Of a DNA stretch of 64,000 nucleotides, positions 17,067-52,968 are shown piece by piece. Every line of letters begins with the position of its first letter. Within the stretch, counting starts at the first letter, position 1. The notes beneath the pieces were generated by a model that was not told where the DNA came from, did no database searches, and saw only the letters and a list, made by a program, of their open reading frames with translations. The translations under genes and the position numbers were made by a program. Source of the stretch: an uncultured Candidatus Saccharibacteria bacterium (GTDB lineage Bacteria > Patescibacteriota > Minisyncoccia > Phycocordibacterales > UBA1006); the NCBI GenBank assembly GCA_964601935.1, contig CAZROP010000001.1:185867-249866 (forward strand). Direction: 5' to 3'.

Positions 17067-17927
17067 CTACAGCGTGCAGAGAACGTACAGATTGAATGCT
17101 TGTGGATCCAGTGTCCAGGTAGCGACTACCTTCAGATTCACCATATGAATCTTCCAATTACGCTGTATGCCTGCCTGGATCTTCCATATATTAGGACCTT
17201 CTTTTTGATAAAAGCATCCTACGTCGGCAAATATCCTGTAGTCTTTCAATCCCGGAGCTGGTGCAGATATGAACACTCCTACCTCGCTATTTTTCGCCGA
17301 AATAAGTGCGAAAAATCTCTTATCTTCATACTGCATCGCGTATCCCCAACCAATAACTGTATCAGGTCGTACCCAGCCTGCGAATGTAAACCGGTTCCAT
17401 ACTGATATGACGTTGCGACCGAACTGACCTGCAAGATGGTATTCGGGCTTGAAGTTACGCAAGTGTACTCCTCCTAACACCCTGCCCGCTGAGTATTGAT
17501 ATTGTGCTCGCAGACCGGGAGCTTTCCCGGTAATCCGACTTTGTGCGGTTACTTCGAATTGACCACTACCTGTTACAGGCAACGGTCGCAACAGTGCAGC
17601 CGCAGGTGATGGAATATCCCCCAGGCTAAATGTCCAATGTGCATTGGGTTTCCAGTTAATACCCAGACTCAACGCTGGTTGCACACCCGAATCCCAGTAA
17701 CCCCAACCAGCCAGCAACACGTTGCCACCTAGCGACACCTCAAATCCGATACCAATTCTAATATCCCCAACTGTGGAGTTTTTGGTAGTGTCGAGCCGGT
17801 ATTGGTTCCCACCCAGAATACCAGCATATATATCAAGCTTCTTCCCCAAGGTATCAATAACAGTCAGTTGCGCGATTGCTGTATACCCTAGGCATACGCA
17901 AAGAATAGAAGAAATGATACTTTTCAT
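17067..17927 (-). CDS. secreted beta-rich hypothetical protein
   Basis: 286 aa with a signal peptide MKSIISSILCVCLGYTAIAQ and alternating hydrophobic, Gly/Trp-rich beta-strand-like segments. Confidence 0.5.
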   Translation of the reverse strand: MKSIISSILCVCLGYTAIAQLTVIDTLGKKLDIYAGILGGNQYRLDTTKNSTVGDIRIGIGFEVSLGGNVLLAGWGYWDSGVQPALSLGINWKPNAHWTFSLGDIPSPAAALLRPLPVTGSGQFEVTAQSRITGKAPGLRAQYQYSAGRVLGGVHLRNFKPEYHLAGQFGRNVISVWNRFTFAGWVRPDTVIGWGYAMQYEDKRFFALISAKNSEVGVFISAPAPGLKDYRIFADVGCFYQKEGPNIWKIQAGIQRNWKIHMVNLKVVATWTLDPQAFNLYVLCTL

Positions 17928-19008
17928 TACACATGGTTTTTAATATTGAACAATCTTGCTTAAAAAACAAAACCGAACAAAACCAAGGAATAGGATCTAG
18001 AGCGCGAACGAATCCGCACACTATCCTATCGATGTAATGAAAAAATATTTTTCCTCTCCTCTCTGTATAGCTATGTGCCTCATACGGAACAACAATGTAT
18101 ACGTCATTGTAACAGTCTGGTGGCGGATGATAGATATCCGCAACAATTATCGTAGTAATATCCATACTGATTACTGTACTCATTTGTGCCGAAACACGTA
18201 GCGAACACACAACCGATAGAGATACCAACATCCCATGTCGCAGTATATGTCCTTGATTCAGAAGCAATTGAAATCCTTGGAGAATACCTAACCGTTTGGT
18301 TGGTAACTCCCTTACCAACAATCTCTCAGTTTTCGTCAGAGTACCTGTCAGCGATTTTTTGGTTCGTCGGACAAGTGTTTCTGCTACTATGCTGAAGTAA
18401 TGATCCTCAAACTTTCGTTTCAGGACCAGCCACAAGAACAAGGGCCAGAGTAATGTAACAAACAGAAGCTTGATAGGACTACCTGCGAATCGCCGGAAGT
18501 ATGGGTTTTCGTACACCCACAAACAGAACAATAATCCAACGAACGGCAATCCAAACAAGTACTGACGAAGCAACCAACTCAAGAGAGCTAACCATGCTGC
18601 TTTCCAATTAATCGGCTCCGCATCATCCAATTCTGGAAAATACTTGCTGCGTGCAGCATCAATGCTTGCCCGAGACGGGTTCTGTCTTTCCATAACTCGC
18701 ATGACTTCATTCTGTAGCAGTATAAATGCTGGTAGATTATCGGATCCCGTAAGATCATACCAGATCTGTTTCGCCGTATACAAATCGGCGAAATAACAAT
18801 CAGGGGTGTAGCTGTAGTATGCTGGTTCTGTGGCAGTAATCTTATGCAGTCTGCCCTTCCAGAACCTTTGAAGAGAGTCTATTGCAAACTGTGCGGTACC
18901 TGACGGTATCTCGTTTGCAGGTATATTGTATGTGTGCCAAAAACTCGTTGGCATACCAGTGTTCCAGATTAGCATCAGAAACACGGCAAGTTTGATAAAC
19001 TTTTTCAT
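17854..19008 (-). CDS. hypothetical polytopic membrane protein
   Basis: 384 aa with a signal peptide and several TMs; its 3' end overlaps the next gene by 74 nt. Confidence 0.45.
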   Translation of the reverse strand: MKKFIKLAVFLMLIWNTGMPTSFWHTYNIPANEIPSGTAQFAIDSLQRFWKGRLHKITATEPAYYSYTPDCYFADLYTAKQIWYDLTGSDNLPAFILLQNEVMRVMERQNPSRASIDAARSKYFPELDDAEPINWKAAWLALLSWLLRQYLFGLPFVGLLFCLWVYENPYFRRFAGSPIKLLFVTLLWPLFLWLVLKRKFEDHYFSIVAETLVRRTKKSLTGTLTKTERLLVRELPTKRLGILQGFQLLLNQGHILRHGMLVSLSVVCSLRVSAQMSTVISMDITTIIVADIYHPPPDCYNDVYIVVPYEAHSYTERRGKIFFHYIDRIVCGFVRALDPIPWFCSVLFFKQDCSILKTMCNEKYHFFYSLRMPRVYSNRATDCY

Positions 19009-20727: not shown

Positions 20728-23700
20728 TTACGCTGCTTCTTGTAATTCTTCTCTTCCTTGCTCATTCAATGGAACAACTTTTGTACCGCTAGTTCTTTTA
20801 CGAGATAAAAAGTCTTTGAAATCTCTACCATTTTTTATTCGATCGACATGACTCTTTATCTGTTCATTAGTAGTACTCATTGATTCTACAACTTCTGGAG
20901 TAGTACTATTCTCCCGACCACGAGCTCTTCTTGCCAGCTGAGCTTGTATTTGCTCTGTAGTAGGACTTTTATTTTCTCTTGGTTTAGCATTTTCTATCCT
21001 TCTGCTCTGCCAAGAAGCTGTGGCTCTTTTTAGTGCAGGAGTAACGAATGCAGTACTTTGAAGCTGACCCTCCTCTTCTTTAGGTTTATCAAACACGCCA
21101 TCCCAGAAACTATCCCATCTATGTTCCTGTGTAAGGGTTTGAGATTCTGCGACGGGGGCTACATTTGCTTCTATTACACTTGATGTAGCAGAGGTTTGAT
21201 TGGTTTCTTCACCTGCAATAGGGGTATCAAACCCAAAGAATGAGGAATCATAACTCTGATTAGTAGTATTATTAATCGTCTGAGAGTTATTATCTTCAGC
21301 TTGCAGCCTATTACCTTGATTAGTATTATTAAGCTGTTCTCTATTATTTTCACCATCTCGAGCAAGAGAACGATCTCTCTGTAGAGTCCGCCTCTCATCA
21401 TTATCAGGCGTACGGCCTGGTTCTTGGTCTGGGTGTTTTTCCTTGTAGTCATCTGTCGGCCCCATAAATCGCTGGGCATGTATAGGTTGCACATGTATAT
21501 CAGTATCATATACATTAGGTGCTTCGTAGTCTATATCAAGGATTGGTTGATTCGAAAAGTTCTCACCCTGTATACGAGCCAACGAGCGTACATTGTACGG
21601 CATAGTATCTGAACCATCTCCCTCTAATACTTCTACTGCCAGTATCTGCCCTTTCAATTCGAATTTTCCATCTTCAGTCACATGAAGGAATTCAGAGTTA
21701 ACACCAGTATTCGGAATAAATGCCTTACCATTTTTATCAAATTCTATAAATACAGCACCTTTGTTACCGATACTATCACTTGTTACTAATTTTTCGCTTC
21801 CCTCGTAGAGCATTAACTTTATTTTTCCTTTTCCTACCATTTCTTTTATTTGATCTCCTGTCAGTTTATTACTACCAAATGTTGACTCATCGTTAAACAT
21901 GTCTGCAATCGACATTTCGTATCCCTTCACATTTCCATCAGCATCCCATATTACACCTGATCCATTTGGTCCTCCCCATTTTAGATCCAATTCATTGCGC
22001 GCAAATTCTTTGGTATCATAATCATAATAATTGTCCATTCGAACAGATTTGAATTCAGCTGGACGCTCTGCTCCATTATAAGAATCAAAATATGAACCTG
22101 GGACAGGTGTCTCTGTTATCGTGAATCCTTTCCCTGCTAATGCTTTCTGTATATCGTCCTGACCTATTACACCATCACCTGCGGCATCTGGTATAGAAAT
22201 GTTTACGCCATTCGGTCCTGTTAGTGCAACACCATTTCCCTGCTGCTCCAGACAGAACCCATCCGGTAGACGCACATCTGCAGATACCTTGCCATCTATA
22301 CCCTGGATGATAGAACTGTGAGACATGGTAGTCGTGCCTCCGCCTGTTATCAGATTTTTTAACTGCATCAGGAGTGTTGCCTTTTTCTCGGAATCTCGTT
22401 CTGTGAACCAACTTTCTACCAAACCCATCGTAGAATCATCTATCAATGCCCATATTTCAGCAGTTGCAATACCGAATGCAAATGATAGTGCAAATACGGC
22501 TGAACCTGTTATCGCTGCCTCTTTTGCGAGCATTGATTTCACCCCCCTCTTATGTTTAGAAATACTTTCTATCAACTCCTTTCTAGTTTTTGAAATCTCA
22601 GGATTTTCACGTGCATTTTGTAGAGCATTATTAAATTCATTACCAAGTTCTTTTTTTAATCCTGCACGTAGACGTGCCATTAGAACAGCAATTTCACGAT
22701 GTTGTGCTTCTACCTGACCCGGATCATACTGAATTAATTCTACCTTTTTAATATTACCTGACTTTATAAGATCTTCATAACGGATCAATAATTCCAGTTT
22801 TGATTCTAGGGGATACTCCTGACCAGCACGTAATTCGCTGATAATAGATTGTGCTGGTTGCAAATCCATGCTAAATTTTTCAAACTTTGCAGCAACTTTA
22901 TCATTACTATAGGTTTCTCCTGCAGCAGTGTTCTGGTAATACTGCTGTGCCTCGGTGGTTCTACGATTATACTGCGCTGATCCTGCGAATGCTCCACCTA
23001 TAACTGAACCTACGACTGGCACAGCTAATGTTGCTTCTGCTGCCTTTTTCGAAACTATTTTTGCGACTGATGCCGCAGCACCCGCGAGGACAGCCAGCGT
23101 TGTTCCATTAAACACTCTTGTGACTTTTATTTTTTCACACCATCTACCAAATCTACCTTTGTATTTCGATGATAACGAATGTTCTGCAATCGCTATTTTC
23201 AGAGAAATATGAAGTTCGTTTATATATCTAGCTTTCTCATCAGCGCTCAAACCCTCAAATAGAGACTTGACTTCTCTGCAGACCACAAAGAAATTATGAG
23301 CAGTTATTGTTTCCTGACCACCTCCTTGGATTCTGCGTAGTGTATCGAGCTGCTGATTTACTAACTCCTGATACGTAATTGTTTGACCTGTGGGTACTTC
23401 TGATCTGAAACTATCGATATCTTCCTGAGATTTCAGAAATTCTATCAAAAATGTTCTGAGATTTTCTGATACCTGTGCCTGTCGAGTTTCATTATTATCT
23501 ACATTATAGACCTTTTCACCTGCGCTCAAGATACTATCGTCACCACTAATCACACGATCAGCTGCTGATTCGTACAGTGCACGTGTTCTTGCCTCGCCAT
23601 CATCCTCACCCAAAAACACATTACGCTGTTCTGCTGTTTCCCGTAGTGCAGCAACACGGTGTTTTGCCTGTCGATACTCATGAACTATTGCATTTTTAGC

Positions 23701-23871
23701 TCTTGTGAACTGTCGTGCGATCCAGTTCTTTTTTTCTGCTGACTGTTCCTGAGCCCCTAATCGTTCTGCTGCCAATTTACGAGCATACTGTCGTTGAATA
23801 TCAGTCACATCAGCAATACCTACATTAACTTCTGTAGGTATTTCTTCAAAACTTGTTTCTCTGAGCAACAT
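20728..23871 (-). CDS. large surface/membrane protein: N-terminal coiled-coil domain, two TM helices, large C-terminal extracytoplasmic domain with Q/N/T-rich tail
   Basis: 1047 aa with Gly/Ala-rich TMs (LAVPVVGSVIGGAFAGSAQY; AITGSAVFALSFAFGIATAEIW); no known catalytic motifs; paralogous in architecture to 52969..55047. Confidence 0.5.
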   Translation of the reverse strand: MLLRETSFEEIPTEVNVGIADVTDIQRQYARKLAAERLGAQEQSAEKKNWIARQFTRAKNAIVHEYRQAKHRVAALRETAEQRNVFLGEDDGEARTRALYESAADRVISGDDSILSAGEKVYNVDNNETRQAQVSENLRTFLIEFLKSQEDIDSFRSEVPTGQTITYQELVNQQLDTLRRIQGGGQETITAHNFFVVCREVKSLFEGLSADEKARYINELHISLKIAIAEHSLSSKYKGRFGRWCEKIKVTRVFNGTTLAVLAGAAASVAKIVSKKAAEATLAVPVVGSVIGGAFAGSAQYNRRTTEAQQYYQNTAAGETYSNDKVAAKFEKFSMDLQPAQSIISELRAGQEYPLESKLELLIRYEDLIKSGNIKKVELIQYDPGQVEAQHREIAVLMARLRAGLKKELGNEFNNALQNARENPEISKTRKELIESISKHKRGVKSMLAKEAAITGSAVFALSFAFGIATAEIWALIDDSTMGLVESWFTERDSEKKATLLMQLKNLITGGGTTTMSHSSIIQGIDGKVSADVRLPDGFCLEQQGNGVALTGPNGVNISIPDAAGDGVIGQDDIQKALAGKGFTITETPVPGSYFDSYNGAERPAEFKSVRMDNYYDYDTKEFARNELDLKWGGPNGSGVIWDADGNVKGYEMSIADMFNDESTFGSNKLTGDQIKEMVGKGKIKLMLYEGSEKLVTSDSIGNKGAVFIEFDKNGKAFIPNTGVNSEFLHVTEDGKFELKGQILAVEVLEGDGSDTMPYNVRSLARIQGENFSNQPILDIDYEAPNVYDTDIHVQPIHAQRFMGPTDDYKEKHPDQEPGRTPDNDERRTLQRDRSLARDGENNREQLNNTNQGNRLQAEDNNSQTINNTTNQSYDSSFFGFDTPIAGEETNQTSATSSVIEANVAPVAESQTLTQEHRWDSFWDGVFDKPKEEEGQLQSTAFVTPALKRATASWQSRRIENAKPRENKSPTTEQIQAQLARRARGRENSTTPEVVESMSTTNEQIKSHVDRIKNGRDFKDFLSRKRTSGTKVVPLNEQGREELQEAA

Positions 23872-24419: not shown

Positions 24420-24641
24420 TTACTGAGCAGGTACAACAACGTCTGTTGATACTTCAACAGGCTGTACTGCTGGCGCAGGCTGGATGTCTGTAACTGGTGC
24501 TCCCTCTACTGGAACTTCTTCTACAGCCTTGTTCTTCTTTCCGGTTACGATGATAATGATGATTATCACGATTACTGCAACAGCGATAAGGCTAGTTACG
24601 ATTGTATTTCCTTTGATCATAATAAATATAGATTCTTTCAA
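24420..24641 (-). CDS. small single-pass membrane protein
   Basis: 73 aa with one strongly hydrophobic helix (IAVAVIVIIIIIIVTG) followed by a Pro/Val-rich tail. Confidence 0.4.
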   Translation of the reverse strand: MKESIFIMIKGNTIVTSLIAVAVIVIIIIIIVTGKKNKAVEEVPVEGAPVTDIQPAPAVQPVEVSTDVVVPAQ

Positions 24642-24792: not shown

Positions 24793-26427
24793 TTATACAT
24801 CGACCAACGGAGGTTTTGGACGGTACTGCAACGCATCCAGTATATGCCGGTCTTCAATAGTAGGAGACGATTCCATATCTGCAATCGTACGACCAATACG
24901 TATTACGCGATGATAGGCACGCGGTGACAAGTGCAGTTTTTCCGCGCTTTTCATCAATAACGTTCGTGCGCTATCTGACAAACCTACGGAATTCATATCA
25001 CGCGCCTGAATCAATGCATTAGGTGATCGTAATCCTGCAGACCCTGCACGTGTACTACCAAACGCACGTGCCTGTATGATATTTTGCCTGATCTGTGCAC
25101 TAGTTTCTCCTATAGAACTGTTATCATGCAAAGTTTCGTAGGAAATATGCTCTACCGGAACCCAGAGATCAATACGATCAACCAGAGGTCCTGATAGCTT
25201 TTTCCTATATTTTCGTATCTGAATTTCGCTACAGGTACAGCGTTTGACCCGTGACCCTGCAAATCCACATGGACAAGGATTCATAGCTGCAACTAATATA
25301 AAATTAGCAGGAAATTCTATTGTTCCTCGGGCACGCGATACAGTTACCACCTTATCCTCCAGCGGTTGCCGTAAACTTTCTAATACTTTTAGGTCAAATT
25401 CAGGGAATTCATCCAAAAACAACACACCGCGGTGCGCGAGACTCACTTCGCCAGGGCGTGGCACCGTGCCCCCACCTACTAATGCCACATAACTACTAGT
25501 ATGGTGCGGACTACGAAATGGCGGGTAATTAATAAATGACCCTTGTAGTGTTCCTGCGACTGAATGAATCCCTGTTACCTCTATGGCATCATCCAGTGAT
25601 AACTGAGGTAATAACCCAGTAAACGCACGGGCGAGCATGGTTTTGCCCGTTCCGGGCGGTCCGAACAAGGCAATACTATGGCCGCCTGCGGCGGCTATTT
25701 CTAACGCCCGTTTTGCCGATTCCTGACCTCGCACTGTCGATATGTCAGGATACTGTGGTGATTGTCGTAATAATGACTCGTCGAACTGGGCTATGGTAAT
25801 ATTCTGTACCTCTGTAGGTAGTTTTTGTTCCCGCATCATGCGTTCGAAACCATTCGTATCAATATGCGCTACAATATCCCGCAGATGATGTACGCCATAT
25901 ACGGTGATACCTTCCACTACCGATGCCTCATTGGCGTTTTCTTGCGGCACATATATGTCGGTATATCCCTGGTTCCGAGCCTCGATAGTCAACGGTAACA
26001 CCCCGCGTACTGACTGAATATCTCCATTCAGTGATAACTCACCTAAAAACAAGGACTTGTCACACTCACCCTGTATCGATCCGCTCGCTATCAAATACCC
26101 TATAGCTATTGCAATATCGTAATATGACCCTTCTTTGCGTAATTCTGCGGGCGATAACGATACAATTGTTTTTTGATTAGCATGTTTTGGCGACGGAAAA
26201 CCGCTATTATGCAACGCGGTGCCCACGCGCCCTCGAGATTCATCCACTGATTTATCAGGTACACCAATAATATCGAATTTATTAAGAGTATTATGAACAA
26301 TATCTACCTCGACCGTAACAACACTACCCGTAATACCTCGTGGCTGCGCCGAATGTACCCGTGCAAATGACGGCTTTTTCATAGATAGCCAGTACTGTAA
26401 CACAAATAATTGTAATATCAAAAACAC
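24793..26427 (-). CDS. comM: Mg-chelatase-like AAA+ ATPase YifB/ComM
   Basis: 544 aa; Lon-like N-terminal domain; Walker A FGPPGTGKTM; FLDEFPEF; C-terminal Zn motif VKRCTCS. Confidence 0.8.
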   Translation of the reverse strand: MFLILQLFVLQYWLSMKKPSFARVHSAQPRGITGSVVTVEVDIVHNTLNKFDIIGVPDKSVDESRGRVGTALHNSGFPSPKHANQKTIVSLSPAELRKEGSYYDIAIAIGYLIASGSIQGECDKSLFLGELSLNGDIQSVRGVLPLTIEARNQGYTDIYVPQENANEASVVEGITVYGVHHLRDIVAHIDTNGFERMMREQKLPTEVQNITIAQFDESLLRQSPQYPDISTVRGQESAKRALEIAAAGGHSIALFGPPGTGKTMLARAFTGLLPQLSLDDAIEVTGIHSVAGTLQGSFINYPPFRSPHHTSSYVALVGGGTVPRPGEVSLAHRGVLFLDEFPEFDLKVLESLRQPLEDKVVTVSRARGTIEFPANFILVAAMNPCPCGFAGSRVKRCTCSEIQIRKYRKKLSGPLVDRIDLWVPVEHISYETLHDNSSIGETSAQIRQNIIQARAFGSTRAGSAGLRSPNALIQARDMNSVGLSDSARTLLMKSAEKLHLSPRAYHRVIRIGRTIADMESSPTIEDRHILDALQYRPKPPLVDV

Positions 26428-26461
26428 CCTCTATAGGGTGTTTTATCAAATTAAACTAGTA

Positions 26462-26935
26462 TTACCACTCGTAATAATTATAGTCGTAGCTGGAATTATT
26501 GTAGTTATTATTATAATTACGCCCACAATAGTAACATCGGTTAGCACTTGAATTATTACGTCGCGCATTTCTCTGCTGATTACATGCGCGATTAGTACAG
26601 ACTACTTGATCATTGTATCCGCCGTAGTTGCGATAATTATTGGTATTACACGAATATCCACAATTTGATTGGTATCGTGTTGTAGGGCGATAGTTATTAC
26701 AGCCACTATAACCACAATTACCGTTATAATACCCATTATTATAGCTGTAATCTATACTAAAGTCGACGTAGCTATAGTTACTACCATAATAGTAATCATC
26801 GTAATAACAATTAGAGTAATAATCACATGCAAAGGTAAGGCTCGGTAGTACGAAGCCGCCTGCGAGAATGATCATGAATGTTGATATAATCTTTTTCATA
26901 TGAGTTAAGTGTATAGCTATATTATAAAAATGCAA
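26462..26935 (-). CDS. secreted Tyr/Asn/Cys-rich low-complexity mini-protein
   Basis: signal peptide MKKIISTFMIILAGGFVLPSLTFA (probable start at the internal Met, ~26896); the mature ~120 aa is roughly a quarter Tyr, a quarter Asn, with 10 Cys. Confidence 0.45.
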   Translation of the reverse strand: MHFYNIAIHLTHMKKIISTFMIILAGGFVLPSLTFACDYYSNCYYDDYYYGSNYSYVDFSIDYSYNNGYYNGNCGYSGCNNYRPTTRYQSNCGYSCNTNNYRNYGGYNDQVVCTNRACNQQRNARRNNSSANRCYYCGRNYNNNYNNSSYDYNYYEW

Positions 26936-27154
26936 TAGATATTGATGTTATCGCGTATTTATCAACCAGTGATAGGGCGACAAGTATATCCGAGAAGTAC
27001 TAAAAACCATACGTATTTTAGAATCGTTTCGTGACTTGTAAGTTCTAAAACTACAAATGCGCAACGATACTCTATTTACTAAACTTGATATATATGGCGA
27101 TATATTCATATCATAGTGAATAATACACTATATTATTAATATGTCAAATTATAA

Positions 27155-27188
27155 AACAAAAAACTCCTTTTTAATAAGGAGTTTTTTG
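27155..27188 (-). terminator. bidirectional intrinsic terminator after nusG
   Basis: hairpin aaaaaactcc/ggagtttttt with A/T runs on both sides. Confidence 0.6.
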
Positions 27189-27205
27189 TTTCTCTTGCAT
27201 AAGTA

Positions 27206-27751
27206 CTACAATGCCTTGATATGCGTAAAATCCAGATCTACAGGAGTTTCGCGACCAAACATCGAGATAATGACTCGTGCACGTCCTGTTTCTGGGGATA
27301 GCTCGCTAATAACCCCATACTGGTCCTTGAACGGTCCTTCGAGCACACGAACCTTGTCATGTACCGCAAAGTCCGATTGATAGGTCACAGCGGTGTTTTC
27401 TGCCCGCTGCATGATGCGATTGAGCTCGTCCTCGGTAATCGGCACAGGCTGCGTTCCTGACCCCACAAAGCCCGTCACACGCGGTGTATTACGCACAATG
27501 TACCAGGAATCGTCGTCTACGATCATTTCTACTAGAACATACCCTGGATAGACCTTTTCATCCACAGTCTGCTTCTTTGCGCCCTTTATTTTTACCGTTT
27601 TTTCATGAGGAACCAGTACACTGAATATTTTATCCTGATATCCCAGAGATTCCACACGCTGACGCAAATTACGCGCCACAGCATCCTCGTAACCAGAATA
27701 AGTGTGTACTACATACCATGCACGCTGCCCTGAACTTTGTTGGCGAGACAT
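27206..27751 (-). CDS. nusG: transcription termination/antitermination factor NusG
   Basis: 181 aa; NGN domain (WYVVHTYSGYE) and KOW domain (GDKVRVLEGPFKDQYGVI). Confidence 0.88.
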   Translation of the reverse strand: MSRQQSSGQRAWYVVHTYSGYEDAVARNLRQRVESLGYQDKIFSVLVPHEKTVKIKGAKKQTVDEKVYPGYVLVEMIVDDDSWYIVRNTPRVTGFVGSGTQPVPITEDELNRIMQRAENTAVTYQSDFAVHDKVRVLEGPFKDQYGVISELSPETGRARVIISMFGRETPVDLDFTHIKAL

Positions 27752-28953: not shown

Positions 28954-29226
28954 CTATCTAATAATCACATCATTGATACTAAACTCGTGGGGATTACTGT
29001 TAATATACTGAACCAATCCATCCATACTGCAACGCGTTTGGAGTACCGTTTGTTCCGCAAAGGTTAAGTGTTGCAGTAATACCACCGTCTGCCCTATAAC
29101 AACCTGACGATTATTCAACGACATGCCTGTGCTATGACCTATATATTCCAAAGCTAGATCCTTTAAAACCTGGTCTCGCGACACAGTTTGTGCAAACATA
29201 TTCACCATTTCACTGATATGCTTCAT
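28954..29226 (-). CDS. hypothetical protein
   Basis: 90-aa ORF tightly packed upstream of dnaN. Confidence 0.35.
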   Translation of the reverse strand: MKHISEMVNMFAQTVSRDQVLKDLALEYIGHSTGMSLNNRQVVIGQTVVLLQHLTFAEQTVLQTRCSMDGLVQYINSNPHEFSINDVIIR

Positions 29227-29247: not shown

Positions 29248-30354
29248 TTATCGGCCTACCGGCATTAATAATGCTCTAAAATAGATATCATCTGGCGAGG
29301 TAACCATGATAGGGCGCATTGGATCTATACAGGAAAATACCACCCTATCCACAGACAGTACGTTCATTATTTTCATAATATTATCAGCATTTACGCGTAT
29401 CATGAGGTTTTCCTCGATATCTCCGACTATCAACGCTCTAAATGATGATTTACCCCGTCCACGGTCGTTATAATCCGTTTCGCAGACACACATACTCTCG
29501 TCTGTATTGGGCTTTAGCATTATTTTAGGGAACTGAGGGTCGGCGAATGGCTGTACTGTACGTAGTGCAGTACGTACCTCGTCACGTGTGGTCTCTATGG
29601 TAATAGGAAATTCTTTGGGAATGATTTGTTCATACTGAGGATACGAACCTGTGATAGTGCGTATTATCAATGTGTAATTTCCTGACTGAAACTGACAACT
29701 GCCTTCTGTCGCCACACAATCGACCTTTCCACTATTTCCTAGGCAATGTAGCACATGAGGCGTGTATTTATTAGGTAACAACACTGTCCCCTCCTCTAGC
29801 TCACAAGGTACTCGAGTCTCAGCCAGGTAAAAACTATCTGTCGCAGCAGCTACTAAAAACCCTTGTTTTATTGACAAAAACACCGATGCAAGCTCCGGTC
29901 GTATATCAGAAACCGCACAGGCGAATGACACCCGTTTGATAACATCAGATAGTAATGTAGACGATCCTGTATACCAAGTATCTCCAACGAGTTCAGCGAA
30001 CTCCTGAACAGTTTCATGGGGATAGGTTTTAATGTCCGCCTCCGAATCCCCTGAAACGACATGTACCACACCTTCTACTATCTCCAATGTCACTTCGCCG
30101 AGGTTTTTGATAGTACTCAGAAACCCTATCAGGACATTCTGATCGATAGCGACACGTCCTGCATCATCAACAGATACAAACGGTATGATGACGCGTCCCG
30201 ATACCCCTAGACCATGCGCCAGCACCTCTACGTGATCTGTGGCAACAGTGAGACACGTGTACGCTAGGATAGGTTGCGCTGGATGGCGTGTTGGTAATTT
30301 TGATACTGATTGTAGCGCATCCAGTAGAGTTTTCCCCTGCAAGGTCAGTTTCAT
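29248..30354 (-). CDS. dnaN: DNA polymerase III beta sliding clamp
   Basis: 368 aa; N-terminus MKLTLQGKTLLDALQSVSKLPTRHPAQPILAYTCLTV matches the DnaN pattern; length and three-domain periodicity fit. Confidence 0.65.
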   Translation of the reverse strand: MKLTLQGKTLLDALQSVSKLPTRHPAQPILAYTCLTVATDHVEVLAHGLGVSGRVIIPFVSVDDAGRVAIDQNVLIGFLSTIKNLGEVTLEIVEGVVHVVSGDSEADIKTYPHETVQEFAELVGDTWYTGSSTLLSDVIKRVSFACAVSDIRPELASVFLSIKQGFLVAAATDSFYLAETRVPCELEEGTVLLPNKYTPHVLHCLGNSGKVDCVATEGSCQFQSGNYTLIIRTITGSYPQYEQIIPKEFPITIETTRDEVRTALRTVQPFADPQFPKIMLKPNTDESMCVCETDYNDRGRGKSSFRALIVGDIEENLMIRVNADNIMKIMNVLSVDRVVFSCIDPMRPIMVTSPDDIYFRALLMPVGR

Positions 30355-30590
30355 AGTAGGTATAGTTAACCATGAAAAAGAAAAAGTTATTATTATTAGG
30401 GGTGTGGGTTATGGGGATTGAGCACTACACCCTTATCAGTATAGAGATAATAGAGATGCTTCATACTGGATAACTATGGGTAGATTGCTCAATACTCGGG
30501 GAAAACCTCACTATATACCGATACTATCAGGTTGTTGTGGGTAACTGATAGGGTATATCCCCAGGAAGAGTACGGGTTATCACCAGGGTG

Positions 30591-33305
30591 CTAGGGTGCG
30601 CACAGGGTGTTCGCTCTATCACGAGTTAGGCTATCCCAAATACCAGGAGGCTCCTCTAGTCCGCGCGGCTGCATAATAGTGGTGTAGTTCTGTAGTTGGA
30701 AATCTTTTACTGCTTCTTCGGTTTTGGATTCAAAAGTGCCGGTGACTTCTATACTATAGCCTTGTTGTACTAGAAAGAGTTGTACTCGCTGGATCTCTGA
30801 AGTGTCAGTGCTATCACGGGTGAGTTCAGTGATAAATGGTGCCGAGCATGCCGATACGGACTGTTCGCCCAGGGCGACCTGTTCTATTGTCGATACGCGG
30901 GGTTCTGTATCGGGGATATCCAATTCCTGTAGCCCGGTACGCACTCGTACATCATTGAGGACTTTATTTGCTTTACCTCGACTGAATTTGAAGAAGTTGC
31001 CAGTAGCGTGACCTACTCCAGCCTGGATCAGAATATCGCTGTCGTTGTTCTGATAGGTGTTCACGGCCTGGGTAGTTTCAGGTCCGAAGTATCCATTCAC
31101 CTCGAGATCAGTGCCAAGATAGTAGTTGAGGAATTCTTGAATACGTTTTACTTCTTCAGGATAAGTTGGTCCGAGGTTCTGGTTCATGTCTTTGAGAAAT
31201 AGATACTCTTCCAGAGATTGTGGTAGCGGTTTGTTTGTGTTGAATGGGGATGTCTCTATCGTTTCTTTTGTTATAGAAGGCTGATTTTTTGATACCTCTT
31301 TGATACTTTCTTTTGTAGTTGTCGTTTTTATCGTGGTGTTCGTAGTCAGAGAAGGTACAGTAGTTGGTGTTTTTTCTGCTGTTGAACTTACCGCGGTGGT
31401 ACTTGATTTTGAAAGAGGATTGTAAGTATCTACGGAAGTAGCCAAAGCCAATCGAATCGAACCTCTGTCGAGAGCGGTACCTTGTGATAATGAATCGGAC
31501 AGAGTTCTGCTGTCTGTTATGAGTACACCGTCCATTGATCCGAGGATTGGTAGATTAAATGCATCAGAACTTTCCGGTATAAATCCTGTACTACCTGATG
31601 CTAATAATAGTAGGAGTGTAGCAATAGTCGCCTTTTTGACATGTTTTTTTGCTACCTGATGACGTACTTTTTTGTGAATCTGTTTATGTACCGGTATCGA
31701 TTTGTTTTCTGGTTTGCTACTGCTGAATAGTGCTTGTATGAGAGCTATTACAATAGTACTACCTAGTACTATTGCTCCTATGGATGCAAGGAGGAAGAGT
31801 AATTGGTTGATAGAGATATCAGTATACATATAGTAGGTCACTATTCGTGTATACATAACGTATCCACCGAGTGCGATACACCCTATCAGACCTATAAATA
31901 TAGTGAATAATAGGAAATTACTTGTAGGTTTTGTAGTATGTACCGATGTTGTGATTCGTTTCATACGCATAACGGTTGGTGTCCGCGTATCTTTGTGCTT
32001 CATAGATGCATACTGCCCCCATAATGTGCCCAGCATATAGAATAACCCTCCTATCATCAATGTGAATCCTATATCAGATAAAATATCTCCTGTTAGTGAC
32101 CAGGTATAGGGCAGCTTTTCGATTACATGTGCAGAAGAAGCACTGTACGCCTGAACATTTTGTACAAAGGGTACCACTAATGCTACAACAAATAAAACAT
32201 AGTTTGCGATATGGAGAGCCGCTGTTTCAGGGGATCGTGTGCTTCCTTTGTGTGCTTTATGATGGAGTAGTGTAGCAATACAGAGCACTGCCAAGAATCC
32301 TAGTGTTATAGGTAATAACTCATAAGTTTCTATAAATGTTCGTAGAGAGGTTTTCCAGTCTACGTTTTGCAGCGAACGTGTTTGTATAGCGTTTTCTTCT
32401 TCTGGTGTTGTTATGACTTTGGTGCCGAGTGCCAGACGTAATGGCTCTGTACTCTGTGTGTAATAATGATCGCCTGCTGGTGTGATAATAGTGGTAATGG
32501 ATGTTTCAGTATTAGGTAATAGAGATGCTAATACATCAGGAGTCAGTGATGCCATACGAAGCCTGTGCCCAGATAGGTTACTCGATTCAGAAATATATTG
32601 AACGGTTTCTCTATTTGCAGTAAAAGGAGTAATTTCTGATAGTGAAGGTAGCTCACCATTCTGTAGTGCATACGCGGAAGCAGGTATAAATACTAATGTA
32701 CATACTGCAACAGCAACTAATTTATACCAAGAGTTGGATAACTGCATTAATACTTGTGCAGTATTTTTGAATAGAGAGAAATCTTGTGAATACTTTAGGG
32801 GTCTACGTCTGTCAGGTTCTCCATCATCAAGACACAAGCCATCCTGTGGGCTCGATGAGCTGGAAACACATACTGCACGCTCTCCTGAATAGGAAGATGG
32901 TGTTGCAGATGTATTTCCGGTAGAAGCTATAAGGTATGGAGACTGGATATATGTTGATGTAGATACTGTGCGACCACTGCGTGTTGCAGTTTTTGGTGCT
33001 GTTGCATAAACATGACTGCGTTCCTGTCGGATACGACTAGAAAGAGTACGTGGAGATTTCGATGTGATAGTTGTACGAGAATCCATCAGAGAACTTTGTG
33101 TTTGCGCACGCTGCGATACTGCGCGCTTGAACTCACCAGAAATATCTTTCTTTTGTGCAGTAACCGTTGTGGCGCGATTCCATACCTGTACAATCGGTGA
33201 CGGAGTTGCAGCGTGTGTGAACTTCTGTGTCTTTGATCGTGCACGAGAAGTACGTACGGACGACTGGGTGTTCATATGAACATGAGAGAGAGTTGATGTG
33301 CTCAT
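30591..33305 (-). CDS. large polytopic membrane protein with two C-terminal peptidoglycan-binding (PG_binding_1-like) domains and S/T-rich N-terminus
   Basis: 904 aa; at least 8 TM helices in the middle; two C-terminal repeats (EFLNYYLGTDLEVNGYFGPETTQAVNTYQ and LFLVQQGYSIEVTGTFESKTEEAVKDFQ) fit the PG-binding motif. Confidence 0.5.
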   Translation of the reverse strand: MSTSTLSHVHMNTQSSVRTSRARSKTQKFTHAATPSPIVQVWNRATTVTAQKKDISGEFKRAVSQRAQTQSSLMDSRTTITSKSPRTLSSRIRQERSHVYATAPKTATRSGRTVSTSTYIQSPYLIASTGNTSATPSSYSGERAVCVSSSSSPQDGLCLDDGEPDRRRPLKYSQDFSLFKNTAQVLMQLSNSWYKLVAVAVCTLVFIPASAYALQNGELPSLSEITPFTANRETVQYISESSNLSGHRLRMASLTPDVLASLLPNTETSITTIITPAGDHYYTQSTEPLRLALGTKVITTPEEENAIQTRSLQNVDWKTSLRTFIETYELLPITLGFLAVLCIATLLHHKAHKGSTRSPETAALHIANYVLFVVALVVPFVQNVQAYSASSAHVIEKLPYTWSLTGDILSDIGFTLMIGGLFYMLGTLWGQYASMKHKDTRTPTVMRMKRITTSVHTTKPTSNFLLFTIFIGLIGCIALGGYVMYTRIVTYYMYTDISINQLLFLLASIGAIVLGSTIVIALIQALFSSSKPENKSIPVHKQIHKKVRHQVAKKHVKKATIATLLLLLASGSTGFIPESSDAFNLPILGSMDGVLITDSRTLSDSLSQGTALDRGSIRLALATSVDTYNPLSKSSTTAVSSTAEKTPTTVPSLTTNTTIKTTTTKESIKEVSKNQPSITKETIETSPFNTNKPLPQSLEEYLFLKDMNQNLGPTYPEEVKRIQEFLNYYLGTDLEVNGYFGPETTQAVNTYQNNDSDILIQAGVGHATGNFFKFSRGKANKVLNDVRVRTGLQELDIPDTEPRVSTIEQVALGEQSVSACSAPFITELTRDSTDTSEIQRVQLFLVQQGYSIEVTGTFESKTEEAVKDFQLQNYTTIMQPRGLEEPPGIWDSLTRDRANTLCAP

Positions 33306-36511: not shown

Positions 36512-37012
36512 TTATGGACATTTCACAGTCGCAGGTGTTCCAGCAGCAGCAGCAATAGTTACTACACTGGATGAAGCAGCAATCTGTTTGTTGGATCCTG
36601 CTGAGTCAGCACACCATGCAGTACTACCTGCACCACTCTTCAATAATGTGACCGCAGCCCAAGAAACTGAGTTACTAGAACATGCAGTTGCCACTGTTGT
36701 TGATGTTGAAACGGCAGCACCTGCTGTACTTGCAGCTACTGTTGTCGCAGGTAAGTAGGCCTGTCCTGCTGCCAACACTCCATCATATGTCTTACTTGTA
36801 GTAGCACATACAGTTTGATAACCTGTTGTTGTTTCATCGTAAATAACTTCTGCCGAAGCTCTCACATTAGATATATTACCCTTGATCGCAGCATCAGCAC
36901 CTTTCACACGCGCACTGTTTACTGAACCAATCACTACTGTTGCAAGAACACCAATGATGGCAATAACCACGAGAAGCTCTATCAGAGTAAAACCTCGTAA
37001 TTTTATACTCAT
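36512..37012 (-). CDS. type IV pilin / pseudopilin (class III signal peptide), copy 1
   Basis: 166 aa starting MSIKLRG|FTLIELLVVIAIIG (prepilin peptidase site); conserved C-terminus IAAAAGTPATVKCP. Confidence 0.85.
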   Translation of the reverse strand: MSIKLRGFTLIELLVVIAIIGVLATVVIGSVNSARVKGADAAIKGNISNVRASAEVIYDETTTGYQTVCATTSKTYDGVLAAGQAYLPATTVAASTAGAAVSTSTTVATACSSNSVSWAAVTLLKSGAGSTAWCADSAGSNKQIAASSSVVTIAAAAGTPATVKCP

Positions 37013-37253: not shown

Positions 37254-37760
37254 CTATGGACATTTCACAGTAGCTGGCGTCCCAGCTGCCGCGGCAATAG
37301 ATACTGTATAAGCTGTGGTCAGTGTAATCTGCTCATTAGACCCCGATGAATCAGCGCACCATGCTGTTAACCCTGCTGTTCCTCGTAGTGGTACCGCTGC
37401 AACCCAAGAAATCCCATTACTAACACATACACCCAGTGTTGTTGGTGCGCCAGTATTAGTTGCAGTACCGCTTGTATTGGCGGTTACTGTCGCGTCAGAT
37501 CTGTGTACCTTTGCTGCCGCTAATACCCCTTCATATGTCTTACTTGTAGTAGCACATACAGTTTGATAACCTGTTGTTGTTTCATCGTAAATAACTTCTG
37601 CCGAAGCTCTCACATTAGATATATTACCCTTGATCGCAGCATCAGCACCTTTCACACGCGCACTGTTTACTGAACCAATCACTACTGTTGCAAGAACACC
37701 AATGATGGCAATAACCACGAGAAGCTCTATCAGAGTAAAACCTCGTAATTTTATACTCAT
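37254..37760 (-). CDS. type IV pilin / pseudopilin, copy 2
   Basis: 168 aa; first 75 residues identical to copy 1, divergent middle, shared C-terminus ...GTPATVKCP. Confidence 0.85.
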   Translation of the reverse strand: MSIKLRGFTLIELLVVIAIIGVLATVVIGSVNSARVKGADAAIKGNISNVRASAEVIYDETTTGYQTVCATTSKTYEGVLAAAKVHRSDATVTANTSGTATNTGAPTTLGVCVSNGISWVAAVPLRGTAGLTAWCADSSGSNEQITLTTAYTVSIAAAAGTPATVKCP

Positions 37761-37933: not shown

Positions 37934-38431
37934 TTATGGACATTTCACGGTAGGAGGCGTCCCAGCTGCGGCGGCGATGGTTACACTACCAACAACGGCA
38001 GGTACTGATTTGTTAGACCCCGATGAATCAGCGCACCATGCAGTCGAATAGTTTGCTCCTTTGAGAGGAGAAACAGCAGCCCATGATACTCCATTACTAA
38101 CGCAAACAGCTAATATCCCTGATGCCGTATTTGCTGCTGCACCAGTTGTGTTGGATGCTACGGTTATAGTAGATCCGTGTACTTTCGCTGCGGCGAGAAC
38201 ACCTTCGTATCCTTTGCTGGTAGTAGCACATACACTCGTGTAATTACCTGTTTCATCATAAATAGTTTCTGCTGTAGTGCGTACATTCGATATATTCCCC
38301 TTGATAGCTGCGTCTGCTGCTTTTACTCTTGCACTGTTTACTGAACCAATCACTACTGTTGCAAGAACACCAATGATGGCAATAACCACGAGAAGCTCTA
38401 TCAGAGTAAAACCTCGTAATTTTATAATCAT
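37934..38431 (-). CDS. type IV pilin / pseudopilin, copy 3
   Basis: 165 aa starting MIIKLRGFTLIELLVVIAIIG; about 80% identical N-terminus, variable middle, C-terminus ...GTPPTVKCP. Confidence 0.85.
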   Translation of the reverse strand: MIIKLRGFTLIELLVVIAIIGVLATVVIGSVNSARVKAADAAIKGNISNVRTTAETIYDETGNYTSVCATTSKGYEGVLAAAKVHGSTITVASNTTGAAANTASGILAVCVSNGVSWAAVSPLKGANYSTAWCADSSGSNKSVPAVVGSVTIAAAAGTPPTVKCP

Positions 38432-44143: not shown

Positions 44144-44680
44144 TTGCGCAAACAAATAAAATATTTTGCCATGAAGAAGAATATCTTGTATACCGTTGCG
44201 ATGGTGCTCGGGTTGAGTACATTCACAGTGCCGCTGGCGGCACAAACTGAAATGATTTCCGTTAATGGATTGGAGCCCACTCCATCCTATGTAGCCGCGG
44301 GCTACATGATGCAGGGTGTTGGTAACCCGCTGGTTCCCCGGATTTACCACACAACCCAGGGAGATACTGAATTTATCGCCAATATTCGCTGGAACTCTGA
44401 GGCTCAAGAGTGGAGCCTTGTACTGTATCAAAGCTGCCTCGGGAACCTGCGCCTGGACAAGGGTGAAAGCCCAGCAGATGGGTGCTGGTCTATCCCGTTG
44501 GCGGCGTTCTACATGTCGCAGCGAGCGGATGGCGGGCTGCATTATGCCGCTCAATCGGGAGCGGTACCCTGGAACTCCGTAGAGATAACCGCGCTAGTTC
44601 TCCAGTTCTGGATCGAGCTTTCCCAGTACCAGTGGAACGGTAGCCCATCAGTTATACACGCACCATTCGCGGGTGGTTAG
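44144..44680 (+). CDS. secreted hypothetical protein
   Basis: 178 aa with signal peptide MKKNILYTVAMVLGLSTFTVPLAAQ. Confidence 0.5.
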   Translation: MRKQIKYFAMKKNILYTVAMVLGLSTFTVPLAAQTEMISVNGLEPTPSYVAAGYMMQGVGNPLVPRIYHTTQGDTEFIANIRWNSEAQEWSLVLYQSCLGNLRLDKGESPADGCWSIPLAAFYMSQRADGGLHYAAQSGAVPWNSVEITALVLQFWIELSQYQWNGSPSVIHAPFAGG

Positions 44681-46443: not shown

Positions 46444-49064
46444 AGAAAATGAGGGAAATTAGGTTATATAGTTCAGAGAGCTATAGTTCCTAGATTCCAA
46501 GGGTTGTACTGACTGTTTCATGCGAAACGAGTCGATTTGTTTTTATAATCGACATGTTGTCTCGCGTTACTTGTTACCTGTCTCTTTACCCAGTACTGAC
46601 GTCATGACTCGCCTGTACCAATAAACTCACATTCTCAAAAACCAGCCAGAGATACTATGTCGCGCATAGTGTATCATGCGTGGGGTGTAAAAGCAAAGTT
46701 ATTGACCTTTTTTCTTCCGTCTTCCCAGGCGTAGCGATAGCGGAGATCTGGGATACAGGATTAGAAAAACTCACTGGAGTGTTGTAAGTATGCTGAATCC
46801 TGGATCCCGGGTTGACTATTCATATAGTCGGACCTTGTCCTTCCTTATGAATATGTCCCCCGGGAAGACAGGAAGATTTACGCAAAGCCTTGCGCATTCG
46901 TATAATATGGGTTATTGTGAATTAAATTTCATTAAAATCCACACGGTTATGAGAAAGTTATACATTTTTTTCTGTACCAAATTTGTTAGTTTGACTACGT
47001 GGGCGATGTGCTGGCATTATATTTATTCAGGAGCTGCCCTTCCTGTGAAGAAGGTGGTCAAGACACACTCCTATCACAAAAGGTTAAAGCGTTGGTGGCA
47101 TTGTCGAAAGCTACGATTGCGTATTTGGGTCGACAAAGTGATCTGGGGTAAGGAAGAGGAGATTATACTTGGTGCCGACAGTTCGGTACATCAGGTGCGT
47201 CCTCCAGATGGTTATACTCAAATAAATAAGGATAATTTCCCCCGCCCCGCATTACCTGATTGAAGGACGCTAGTGTTAGAACTAAAAGACCTGATTTTAC
47301 CGAACATATCGATATATTCGATTGTTGCAGTAAGATCAGGTTTTTCTTTTGTTGGATATAAAAATACCCGATAATCTTTATGATTACGGGTGGTTTTATG
47401 ACTAAAGCTAGTTTCTAAAAAAGTGCAGGGTCTTTCCTGGAGGTATGAGGAGAGGACCAGGAGACCCTGCGCGAGTATAGCTTGTTATTCAGTAGTGTAC
47501 TCCGTATAGATAATTATGCAAGGGAGTATTAAAAAACTGCTATGTCCTTTCAGATCAGATATAGCAGTAGTTGGTCCAGAGGGTCCTCCCCGAATTCCCC
47601 TAATCTGTAACTTGTGAGGGAGGCCCTTGTTCCCTCTGGATTTTTTTTGAAAAGTCGGCACCCAGCGCCACAGCGACCCCTGTACCACGTTGTTGTTCTG
47701 GGTCAGGGCACTAGGTGCTCAACTTTTCTATTTGTTCATAGTGTTGAGCCCTACACTACTAGTATTTATTGCAAAGTCAACAGTAACCAGTCATCCTGAT
47801 CATTTTGGAATAATAAAAAACTGCTGTCATCTCGGAGAGAAACAGCAGCTTGTTGCGGCGATCATTCATCATGACCCCCTAATATAACCCCAAAAAACCA
47901 AATGAAAACTTCTTTCGGTGCTGTAACTAAACGCTACGGCACTGAAAGAATGATTTTCTATAAAAAATATGCTCTCTGGAATTTACACCTAGTATATACC
48001 CTCTTGATTCATTGTCAAGAACGCCTGTTCATATTCAGGGTATCTTTGTAAGTATTGTCAAAATAAAAAGTCCCAGAATGGTTACAACGGGCGCTGTGTC
48101 ATCCTCTCTCACGGAGATACAAAAAACCGCTCGCAGATTTTGTACCGAAGGAAAACTGTCCTAGGGGCTAAAAATGGAGCGGCTTCACATGAAACAAATT
48201 TACGTCTTGAGGGTTTCGGTATTAAAGAGAGGTCGACCACTGCTGCCAGTATCGACCTCCCGAAAAACACCTAAAACCCTATTTTTTTCTGTATCATTCG
48301 GTTCGAACGGATTAGCATAATTATATGCTTATAATCCTACATCGTCAATATAATTCAAATAAAAAGGCTGACTCGAAAACATAAAAAGAATTCGGGTCAG
48401 ACTGTGTATGAGAGGATAATCAACGAATGAAATAATAAAAAATCCCCCTTTTGCTGGCCCACTCTACACCCGATTGCGGATTTGTCCAATAGGTATTAAA
48501 AAACGGGAGCCACTGGTGATCTTTGTGGCCCCGTTCAGGGTTGTTGCGCCTCTGGTAGAGTCCGCAACGGGTATATGTGGAGTGAGCTCGTTTTCTTTGA
48601 ATTAGGTCGGGACCTGAATACTGTCCCGACCAGTATATTCAAAAAACAGCAGGTATAGGGTCAATTGAGTAATAGTATAGAGACATGTTCCGGTTTGTCA
48701 ACCCTAGACGGTAATAAAAACCCCTGCAAGGTCACCCATGGGGTAACTACTGCAAGGATCGAGGTTTCGCCTTCTGAAGCTATAAAAGTGTAGTCAGATT
48801 TCCAGTATACTGAAAATATAATGCGTGACTATTGTGGTGGGGTTATAAAAAACCGCTTCATCGGGAGTCTCGGTCGCTAAAACGAGTGATGAAGCGGAGT
48901 AATATCTGGGCGCATGGCATTAGGTGGGGCGCCCAGAACAAAAAACGTATGACGATCTAATAGTGAGGCGTAGCCTACAGGAATTATCGGGCATTGTCAA
49001 GAATTGCAGATGTTAATCGGGTACACATTGTCCTATAACGTCGTATTGTCAAACACCGTGTCTC
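46444..49064. other. ~2.6-kb ORF-poor, stem-loop-dense region (candidate cluster of ncRNAs or a large structured RNA)
   Basis: no ORF over 160 aa; the only ORF (46790..47263) has an implausible W/C/H-rich composition; many perfect 7-11-bp hairpins; + strand terminators at ~47288-47350, 47366-47397, and 47577-47649; minus-strand terminators at ~47815-47850 and 48845-48897. Confidence 0.5.
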
Positions 49065-52802: not shown

Positions 52803-52968
52803 GTTTGCAGTCTTTAGCAAGACAGAACAAAACCCGCTGCCAAGGGCAGCGGGTTTTGTTCTACGTGAAACCTGTATCGGTGTCATAGTACAGTGGATAA
52901 TGCCTGAAATTACAAGCAATTGATTGATATACTGGGTTAGACATCGGTATGCGCCGATCTTGTAGTGT

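Follow-up and report, generated by a model that had tools for sequence, protein, structure and literature searches.

What kind of protein is encoded in the interval between nusG and comM of an uncultured member of the Patescibacteria, and what might it do? The locus lies in a 64,000-nucleotide stretch of contig CAZROP010000001.1 (GenBank assembly GCA_964601935.1, an uncultured Candidatus Saccharibacteria bacterium); this whole stretch is called the window below. A first-pass annotation, made from the letters alone, had pointed here to a short gene (the mini-gene) for a secreted protein rich in Tyr, Asn and Cys. We found it very probable that the open reading frame (ORF) is a true coding sequence and that its product (the mini-protein) is a real exported protein. 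Our overall reading, which we hold tentatively and with somewhat less than even confidence, is that of a genuine, monocistronic and lineage-restricted orphan gene of the Patescibacteria (Paceibacteria/Nomurabacteria-like), whose exported product would self-associate into a surface or matrix "glue".

Evidence for a coding sequence

The ORF lies on the minus strand and encodes a precursor of 145 amino acids (aa), reading from an ATG at 26899 to a TAA at 26462-26464. It is held in a gap of 823 bp, with nusG upstream (27206-27751; PF02357, E 2e-29) and comM/yifB, which encodes a Mg-chelatase-like AAA ATPase, downstream (24793-26382; PF01078, E 1e-89). These Pfam matches bear out the location given by the first-pass annotation, on the minus strand between the two genes. 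Of the span that it proposed, 26462-26935, the position holds and the 5' end does not: 26935 is an upstream TTG, the alternative 5' end of the ORF, and the ATG at 26899 is the better start, because it yields a canonical signal peptide (MKKIISTF...) and is also the start in public gene calls. Indeed, public NCBI and Logan records call an identical 145-aa product (P0001). The three peptide strings quoted at that stage all occur verbatim in the translation, and the peptide YQSNCGYSCNTNNYR is part of the predicted product.

The length of this ORF is rarely reached in shuffled sequence. When the gap was shuffled 5000 times with its dinucleotides preserved, a single shuffle yielded an ORF of 145 aa or more, and 5000 shuffles restricted to the ORF region yielded none; the five other frames contain between 4 and 28 stops. 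A gene on the opposite strand was considered and rejected, with 4-26 stops per frame. Base composition depends on codon position, as indicated by chi-square tests on the whole ORF (p = 6e-15) and on its mature part (p = 5e-22). Moreover, the choice among synonymous codons matches that of the genome (TAT 57 vs 62%, AAT 78 vs 66%, GAT 71 vs 73% in mini-gene and genome, respectively), and TGT serves for all Cys codons (10/10, vs 71% in the genome). Periodicity and codon usage, which had been named beforehand as checks on coding, thus both favour a gene.

Tandem Repeats Finder returned zero repeats in the mini-gene DNA, and the direct repeats present are short and at chance level only, so that the low complexity belongs to the protein and not to slipped DNA. 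The protein itself contains a short internal repeat, whose first copy is encoded by AAT TGT GGT TAT AGT GGC TGT AAT AAC TAT CGC. Between the two copies, Ser switches codon family (AGT vs TCG) and Gly changes codon as well (GGT vs GGA). Such switches hint, if only slightly, at constraint on the amino-acid sequence.

A competing explanation bears on the same evidence. The ORF could be a young de novo ORF (proto-gene) in an AT-rich, variable intergenic slot, perhaps transcribed or translated, without any selected function, and its odd composition would then be a mere stop-free stretch biased towards N-R-Y codons (any base, purine, pyrimidine). The N-R-Y pattern cannot encode a stop codon, and 89 of the 121 mature codons (74%) follow it, vs 25% in the genome. 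Such a composition holds the frame open automatically, so that the ORF length, even if far outside the shuffles, speaks against randomness and is not by itself proof of translation. At the level of codons, two observations count against a proto-gene: His, whose CAY codons are also N-R-Y, is absent, and the repeat retains Ser although its codon family changes. They suggest that selection has acted on the amino acids and not on a pattern of nucleotides.

Signal peptide and mature chain

The N-terminus of the precursor reads MKKIISTFMIILAGGFVLPSLTFA, followed beyond the predicted cut by CDYY.... Its 24-aa signal peptide consists of MKK (n-region), IISTFMIILAGGFVLPSL (h-region) and TFA (c-region), after which comes Cys25; the same build is found in other exported proteins of the window, e.g., MKKLTFAITLIITLAWGTFAFA before a Q. 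Substrates of Sec and signal peptidase I have a positively charged n-region, a hydrophobic stretch of 10-20 residues and small, neutral side chains at -3 and -1, and the precursor conforms to this both on reading of the sequence and in a crude signal-peptide filter. Of 82 short and mostly spurious ORFs, only 2 passed that filter, as the mini-ORF did. The signal peptide that the first-pass annotation called convincing is therefore well founded, with all three regions in place. Cleavage by signal peptidase I is predicted to occur, most likely, after Thr-Phe-Ala24.

The Cys that follows this site raises the possibility of a lipoprotein, in which Cys25 would be lipid-modified and the Tyr/Asn-rich chain tethered to the membrane; topology would change, function not necessarily. 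The sequence LTFA followed by Cys does fit a permissive rule of the PROSITE PS51257 type (K/R near the N-terminus, six preceding residues uncharged, Cys at 25). Thr at -3 and Phe at -2 depart, however, from the strict lipobox L-[AS]-[GA]-C, and neither lgt nor lspA was seen among the ~38 scanned window proteins, which represent 64 kb of the genome only. A lipidated Cys25 would also leave nine Cys and break a pattern of five pairs that is complete when Cys+1 is counted, which argues for a free N-terminal Cys and for signal peptidase I rather than lipidation. We consider a lipoprotein unlikely.

The mature chain of 121 aa had been described as a peptide of ~120 aa dominated by Tyr, Asn and Cys, and the counts agree: 28 Tyr (23.1%, 6.6-fold the window proteome), 27 Asn (22.3%, 5.6-fold) and 10 Cys (8.3%, 8.3-fold). 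Ser (12; 10%, 1.3-fold), Gly (9; 7%, 1.1-fold), Arg (9; 7%, 1.3-fold) and Asp (7; 6%, 1.2-fold) follow. Leu, Lys, His and Met are all at zero, with 1 Ile and 3 Val. Overall, N, Q, Y, G and S make up 66% of the chain and aromatic residues 25%; it has a mass of 14.6 kDa, an isoelectric point (pI) of 7.6, a grand average of hydropathy (GRAVY) of -1.5 and a net charge of about +1. A comparable composition is seen in no other ORF of the window.

The residues are arranged in blocks (mature numbering). Block 1 (1-34) is acidic and Tyr-rich, with a net charge of -5, and block 2 (35-66; net +3) carries the two NCGYS(G)C repeats. Block 3 (67-97; net +4) is basic, poor in Tyr and rich in Arg, Asn and Gln, and block 4 (98-121) consists of CYYC and a Tyr/Asn tail. 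The ten Cys form five sequential pairs, 1/7, 38/43, 56/60, 77/82 and 98/101, with spacings Cx5C, Cx4C, Cx3C, Cx4C and Cx2C and with 13-31 residues between pairs. Counting a gap of at most 6 residues as a pair, a statistic chosen after the pattern had been seen, five close pairs arose in 0.56% of 200,000 residue shuffles, and five pairs that are also widely separated in 0.02%.

The first-pass annotation had further suggested a disulfide-knotted peptide. A knottin is a compact domain, 30-50 aa long, in which six Cys are connected I-IV/II-V/III-VI, whereas here five local pairs are spread over 101 residues, without a knottin-type pattern, and there is no match in the Protein Data Bank (PDB). An AlphaFold2 single-sequence model of the mature chain gave no confident fold, with a predicted local distance difference test (pLDDT) score of 32, a value that cannot give Cys connectivity. 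The idea of a knot is not supported by these observations. The model is uninformative in itself, yet consistent with a non-globular chain; a lack of predicted fold would also be expected of a proto-gene.

From these features we infer the following course. The precursor would enter the Sec pathway via its signal peptide, and the cut after Ala24 would release a very hydrophilic chain which, having no conventional globular fold, would form a sticky, self-associating material at the surface of the cell or within an extracellular matrix. With 66% N/Q/Y/G/S, 25% aromatics, blocks of opposite charge and few aliphatics, the composition argues for a chain that self-associates rather than folds. Tyr/Arg stickers and Asn-rich zippers are established in self-association; here, Tyr-Tyr and Tyr-Arg contacts, ladders of Asn hydrogen bonds and attraction between acidic and basic blocks could each contribute. 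The five CxnC pairs probably form small local disulfide loops, or else thiol or metal sites, and the Cys could act as staples, as inter-chain cross-links or in redox buffering. For an ultrasmall, probably episymbiotic cell, such a material may serve attachment or the building of envelope or matrix. Among the roles proposed in the first-pass annotation, the adhesive one, taken more widely as a material-like role, is that with which the composition is most compatible, as a predicted function; the results spoke neither for nor against biomineral binding. Given that the protein is really exported, we put an adhesive or matrix role at slightly under an even chance.

Known systems and the roles they suggest

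The closest known analogue, in composition and build and not in ancestry, is the adhesive protein Mfp-6 of mussels. In Mytilus coruscus, Mfp6-1 consists of a 22-aa signal peptide and 101 aa, with 11.0% Cys, ~16.5% Tyr and no canonical domain (PMC13208468), and Mfp-6 is described as a thiol-redox and adhesive plaque protein (PMC13208468). The likeness lies in a signal peptide followed by a low-complexity, Cys/Tyr-rich chain of ~100-120 aa (here 24 + 121 aa, with 8.3% Cys and 23% Tyr), with no canonical domain in either protein. In contrast to the bacterial mini-protein, which has a near-neutral pI of 7.6, no Lys and a very high Asn content, Mfp-6 comes from an animal, has a basic pI of 9.0 and carries Tyr residues of which part are converted to 3,4-dihydroxyphenylalanine (DOPA); a modifying enzyme is not known for the mini-protein. 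Homology searches with phmmer and the word index returned only the query, in libraries not confirmed to include Mytilus proteins. By analogy, a mussel-glue-like material could have evolved independently: a Sec-exported chain would condense or cross-link, through disulfides and possibly Tyr, and attach to a host cell or to mineral. This specific proposal we regard as quite unlikely.

The same analogy touches another explanation, namely an extracellular or surface protein for metal binding or thiol redox, in which the five CxnC pairs, with Tyr phenolates, would serve as ligands or buffer the redox state. The documented role of Mfp-6 is thiol-based redox control (PMC13208468), so that the two ideas overlap. 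The CxnC motifs, CYYC among them, are regularly separated, and the window encodes a Fe/Mn superoxide dismutase, indicating that the organism meets oxygen. However, the chain has no His and only one true CxxC, and its irregular spacings match no known metal-site family, searches of Pfam, NCBIfam and the PDB being negative. A role of this kind is therefore improbable in our view. Bufferins, for their part, are ribosomally synthesized and post-translationally modified peptides (RiPPs) with a Sec signal peptide that are modified by MNIO enzymes (PMC12452194). A RiPP precursor was rejected here, since no modifying enzyme (MNIO/DUF692, radical SAM, etc.) is found among the genes within ~5 kb.

A Sec-dependent bacteriocin or antimicrobial peptide, directed against competitors or the host, had also been suggested in the first-pass annotation. 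The product is small, exported, Cys-containing and strain-specific, and its gene sits in a variable slot; as in class IIa bacteriocins, an N-terminal stretch rich in Tyr, Asn and Gly precedes a Cx4C loop, and YYNGNCGYSGC superficially resembles the class IIa box YGNGVxCxxxxC. Class IIa mature peptides are cationic, 35-50 aa long, hydrophobic in their C-terminal half and accompanied by an adjacent immunity gene. The mini-protein differs on each count. YGNGV itself is absent, the motif lacks the Val-x spacing, and no Pfam bacteriocin profile matches at E <= 0.1, so that membership of class IIa (PF01721) was rejected. Moreover, the mature part of 121 aa is three times longer, carries no Lys and a net charge of about +1, and has so few aliphatics (no Leu, 1 Ile, 3 Val) that a membrane-active segment, hydrophobic or amphipathic, is missing, as is the C-terminal hydrophobic hairpin. 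The neighbours are nusG, secE and comM, without an adjacent immunity, ABC-transporter or regulatory gene. The bacteriocin suggestion did not survive these comparisons, and we rate it as highly improbable.

Prion-like and amyloid proteins offer a further comparison. Like yeast Sup35-type prion domains and the bacterial curli subunit CsgA, the mature chain is dominated by N, Q, Y, G and S; aliphatic and charged residues are very scarce in it and a fold is not predicted, and like curli subunits it would be exported by Sec. It differs in its ten Cys, which are unusual in prion-like domains. The Michelitsch-Weissman criterion for a Q/N-rich prion-like domain asks for at least 30 Q+N per 80 residues, and the maximum here, 26 in any 80 residues, falls short of it. 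A curli-like amyloid (CsgA/FapC) was rejected: there is no Pfam or NCBIfam match, no imperfect repeat of the CsgA type, and no csgB/E/F/G-like operon in the flanks. CotC and CotU of Bacillus subtilis are very small, extremely Tyr-rich spore-coat proteins, thought to be cross-linked in an envelope layer. The mini-protein resembles them in being small and Tyr-rich, and database searches revealed no homology; CotC/CotU are rich in Lys and Asp, have no Cys pairs, and are assembled inside the mother cell without Sec export. In the literature we found no bacterial analogue. The mini-protein is best described as a bacterial, non-homologous addition to the small secreted Cys/Tyr-rich low-complexity proteins.

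Transcription unit, genomic slot and relatives

The gap between nusG and comM contains two promoter-like sites ahead of the mini-gene (Table 1). The proximal one is a perfect TATAAT that ends 22 nt upstream of the ATG and lacks a good -35. The distal one, just downstream of the nusG terminator, agrees with the consensus at 11 of 12 sigma-70 positions. The 219-nt stretch from this match to the ATG shows no unusual RNA fold (z -0.3), no Rfam family and no riboswitch. On the other side, a hairpin with a 10-bp stem (AAAACACCCU/AGGGUGUUUU) followed by a U-rich run lies 17 nt past the stop codon, upstream of the comM start; its folding energy is -14.5 kcal/mol (z -3.3), and 1 of 200 shuffles was as stable, even if a strict terminator scan missed it. 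The nusG hairpin (-22.2 kcal/mol, z -7.7) marks the upstream edge of the transcription unit. With its own hairpin ahead of comM and with nusG closed by its own terminator, the mini-gene would stand alone, and these signals predict that it is monocistronic, with promoter-like sites and a terminator-like hairpin of its own.

Table 1. Features of the mini-gene and its immediate surroundings (window positions)
Feature	Positions	Strand	Basis or remarks
Precursor coding sequence	26462..26899	minus	145 aa; public records, shuffles, periodicity
Signal peptide, residues 1-24	26828..26899	minus	read from sequence
Mature Tyr/Asn/Cys-rich region, 121 aa	26465..26827	minus	composition, blocks, AlphaFold2
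Internal repeat copy 1, NCGYSGCNNYR, precursor residues 61-71	26687..26719	minus	
Internal repeat copy 2, NCGYSCNTNNYR, precursor residues 79-90	26630..26665	minus	
TATAAT box, candidate proximal -10	26921..26926	minus	read from sequence
Sigma-70-like promoter match, TTGACA-16 nt-TATTAT	27120..27147	minus	best match in gap
Terminator-like hairpin of the mini-gene	26421..26444	minus	folding vs shuffles
nusG terminator hairpin	27154..27191	minus	folding and inverted repeat I1

Essentially none of the ~35 gene starts inspected in the window has a Shine-Dalgarno sequence, and at many of them a TATAAT-like box stands 8-25 nt ahead of the ATG. Given that a missing Shine-Dalgarno sequence is the norm in this genome, we did not count it against the mini-gene. 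The closeness of such boxes to ATGs throughout the window suggests leaderless mRNAs, or mRNAs with very short leaders. Besides, a 16-nt motif (minus-strand CAT[TA]TT[TA]ATAATATAG; repeat family D3) occurs at both promoter-like sites, at 26917-26932 and 27128-27143, and may be an extended -10 element of this organism. With regard to the downstream gene, the public call of ComM is 542 aa long (P0003), vs 529-530 aa for the closest homologues. A comM start at ATG 26382 (MKKPSF...) leaves non-coding both the hairpin and a TG-extended promoter-like site at 26421-26394.

We searched ~15 billion public proteins for relatives, by a word index of 5.8 billion clusters and by phmmer on 1.84 billion representatives. 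With the precursor and with the mature part, the word index returned only the mini-protein itself at E <= 10. Exhaustive phmmer added a single hit, the repetitive 990-aa protein P0002, which was rejected as a relative because its score is the sum of seven weak stretches. Profile searches of Pfam, NCBIfam, PHROGs and PADLOC gave no match. Among PDB sequences the sole hit was an antibody chain (E 0.33), and no relative turned up in the metagenome and viral contigs that were scanned with the protein. A reading as a prophage or defence cargo gene was rejected. Public copies were found on three contigs (NCBI, Logan), the longest of 377 kb, with identical sequence; the Logan contig (run SRR13208889) is 100% identical to the locus over 6.4 kb. 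The statement of the first-pass annotation that nothing comparable exists in standard annotation thus held throughout the family libraries and protein collections searched.

Approximately half of the ~38 scanned window proteins are also without a Pfam family, many of them exported. Orphans being so common, the orphan status of the mini-protein is unremarkable; it is the composition that is remarkable. Other Pfam-less proteins with signal peptides are encoded at 128-1324, 17854-19008, 44171-44680 and 59259-60419, and Pfam-less proteins also include two adjacent ones of ~690 aa (50733-55047) and one of 1047 aa (20728-23871).

For the genomic context, we retrieved 80 GTDB loci around comM, and we also compared the surroundings of a 90-aa lineage marker and those of the five relatives closest in ComM. 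None of the 80 loci carries a Y/N/C-rich ORF, and outside this lineage nusG is not beside comM in them. ComM identity reaches 54% for the best species representatives and 58-72% for the best metagenomic relatives. Among the latter, L083 (ComM 69%, NusG 88%) is the only syntenic relative, in the order dnaN, 90-aa gene, secE, nusG, HSP20, comM; an HSP20 gene thus fills its nusG-comM slot. In L082 (ComM 70%), a divergent 205-aa multi-pass membrane protein is encoded upstream of comM, without secE-nusG. In L084/85 (ComM 71%), a 118-123-aa homologue of that membrane protein ends at the contig end, and the flank is too short for secE-nusG. In L088, comM falls outside the retrieved stretch, and the 90-aa gene is followed by one that encodes a large exported protein. 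Comparison of the gap with all loci by blastn and tblastn revealed no trace of the mini-ORF, nor was any trace of the HSP20 or 205-aa protein seen in the window.

At the resolution available, the mini-gene thus appears restricted to one species, in a slot of fast turnover ~4 kb from a switch in GC skew. The first-pass annotation had held that an ORF absent or frameshifted in close relatives would speak against it. The ORF is indeed absent, from relatives that are distant (ComM at most 72%), and no frameshifted copy was found. Together with the variable slot, this indicates a lack of conservation and not a frameshifted pseudo-ORF.

These results return us to the proto-gene explanation, which gains from the strict singleton status in both searches, from the absence in relatives with ComM at 58-72% and the HSP20 gene in the slot of L083 (NusG 88%), and from the abundance of orphans in the window. 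Against it stands that a full signal peptide, a promoter-like site, a terminator of its own and a non-random pairing of Cys (p about 0.006) all come together in one gene. A proto-gene without selected function is a serious rival, if a less likely one in our view, and we keep to the reading of an exported, self-associating surface or matrix protein.

Several facts weigh against that reading. Tyrosinase, peroxidase, Dsb, sortase and lgt/lsp were not found among the ~38 scanned window proteins, and the Q/N density of 26/80 is below the classical prion-like threshold of 30/80. With no homologue and three identical public copies, there is no evolutionary evidence of purifying selection. The mini-gene is absent from the nearest relatives (ComM 58-72%), the content of its slot is variable, and the N-R-Y bias of the mature codons suffices to keep the frame open.

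The wider neighbourhood yielded further observations. Within ~5 kb lie dnaN, the 90-aa ORF, a DUF4416 gene, secE (just upstream of nusG), nusG, comM, a gene for a small transmembrane protein, a DUF5663 gene and the gene of the 1047-aa orphan. The 90-aa protein (28954-29226, minus), encoded directly downstream of dnaN, has 50-58% identity to its counterparts in L082, L083 and L088; it is kept in all relatives found of the lineage and is usable as a lineage marker. Directly downstream of comM, a small single-pass membrane protein is encoded at 24420-24620 (minus), with counterparts in L082 (5717-5983) and L084 (2275-2520). It consists of MxKGNTIVTSLIAVAVIVIIIIIIVTGKKNK and a Pro/Val/Ala-rich tail, and is conserved in the lineage without a family assignment.

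The sign of the GC skew switches near 30 kb, beside dnaN (29248-30354, minus), in a region of about 29248-33305. Upstream of dnaN lies the gene of a 904-aa protein with peptidoglycan-binding domains (PF01471) and not dnaA, so that the usual dnaA-dnaN pairing is absent here. Three tandem type IV pilin-like paralogues (PF07963 N_methyl) are encoded on the minus strand at 36512-37012, 37254-37760 and 37934-38431, with near-identical N-termini (M[SI]IKLRGFTLIELLVV...) and identical upstream regions. Finally, the stretch 46470-49060 (~2.6 kb) contains one doubtful ORF of 157 aa only and is free of tandem repeats, and no Rfam family reached its gathering score there; the stretch may represent a decayed gene or a non-coding element.

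Patescibacteria are, to our knowledge, thought to live attached to other cells by attachment molecules that are mostly unknown, and their genomes are full of unannotated exported proteins. As a single-genome observation, the present finding has modest weight. If the mini-protein were only a proto-gene, it would be a clean example of gene birth, an ORF with promoter, signal peptide and terminator and no relatives. If it is adhesive, it would show a species-specific gene as a route to surface material, and a self-associating Tyr/Cys-rich adhesive would be a compact, expressible bacterial counterpart of the glues of marine invertebrates. Should the independent evolution of a mussel-glue-like material prove true, it would be the first bacterial example of that adhesive class, and also an instance in which a functional surface protein arose quickly, perhaps de novo, in a variable slot close to the origin of replication.

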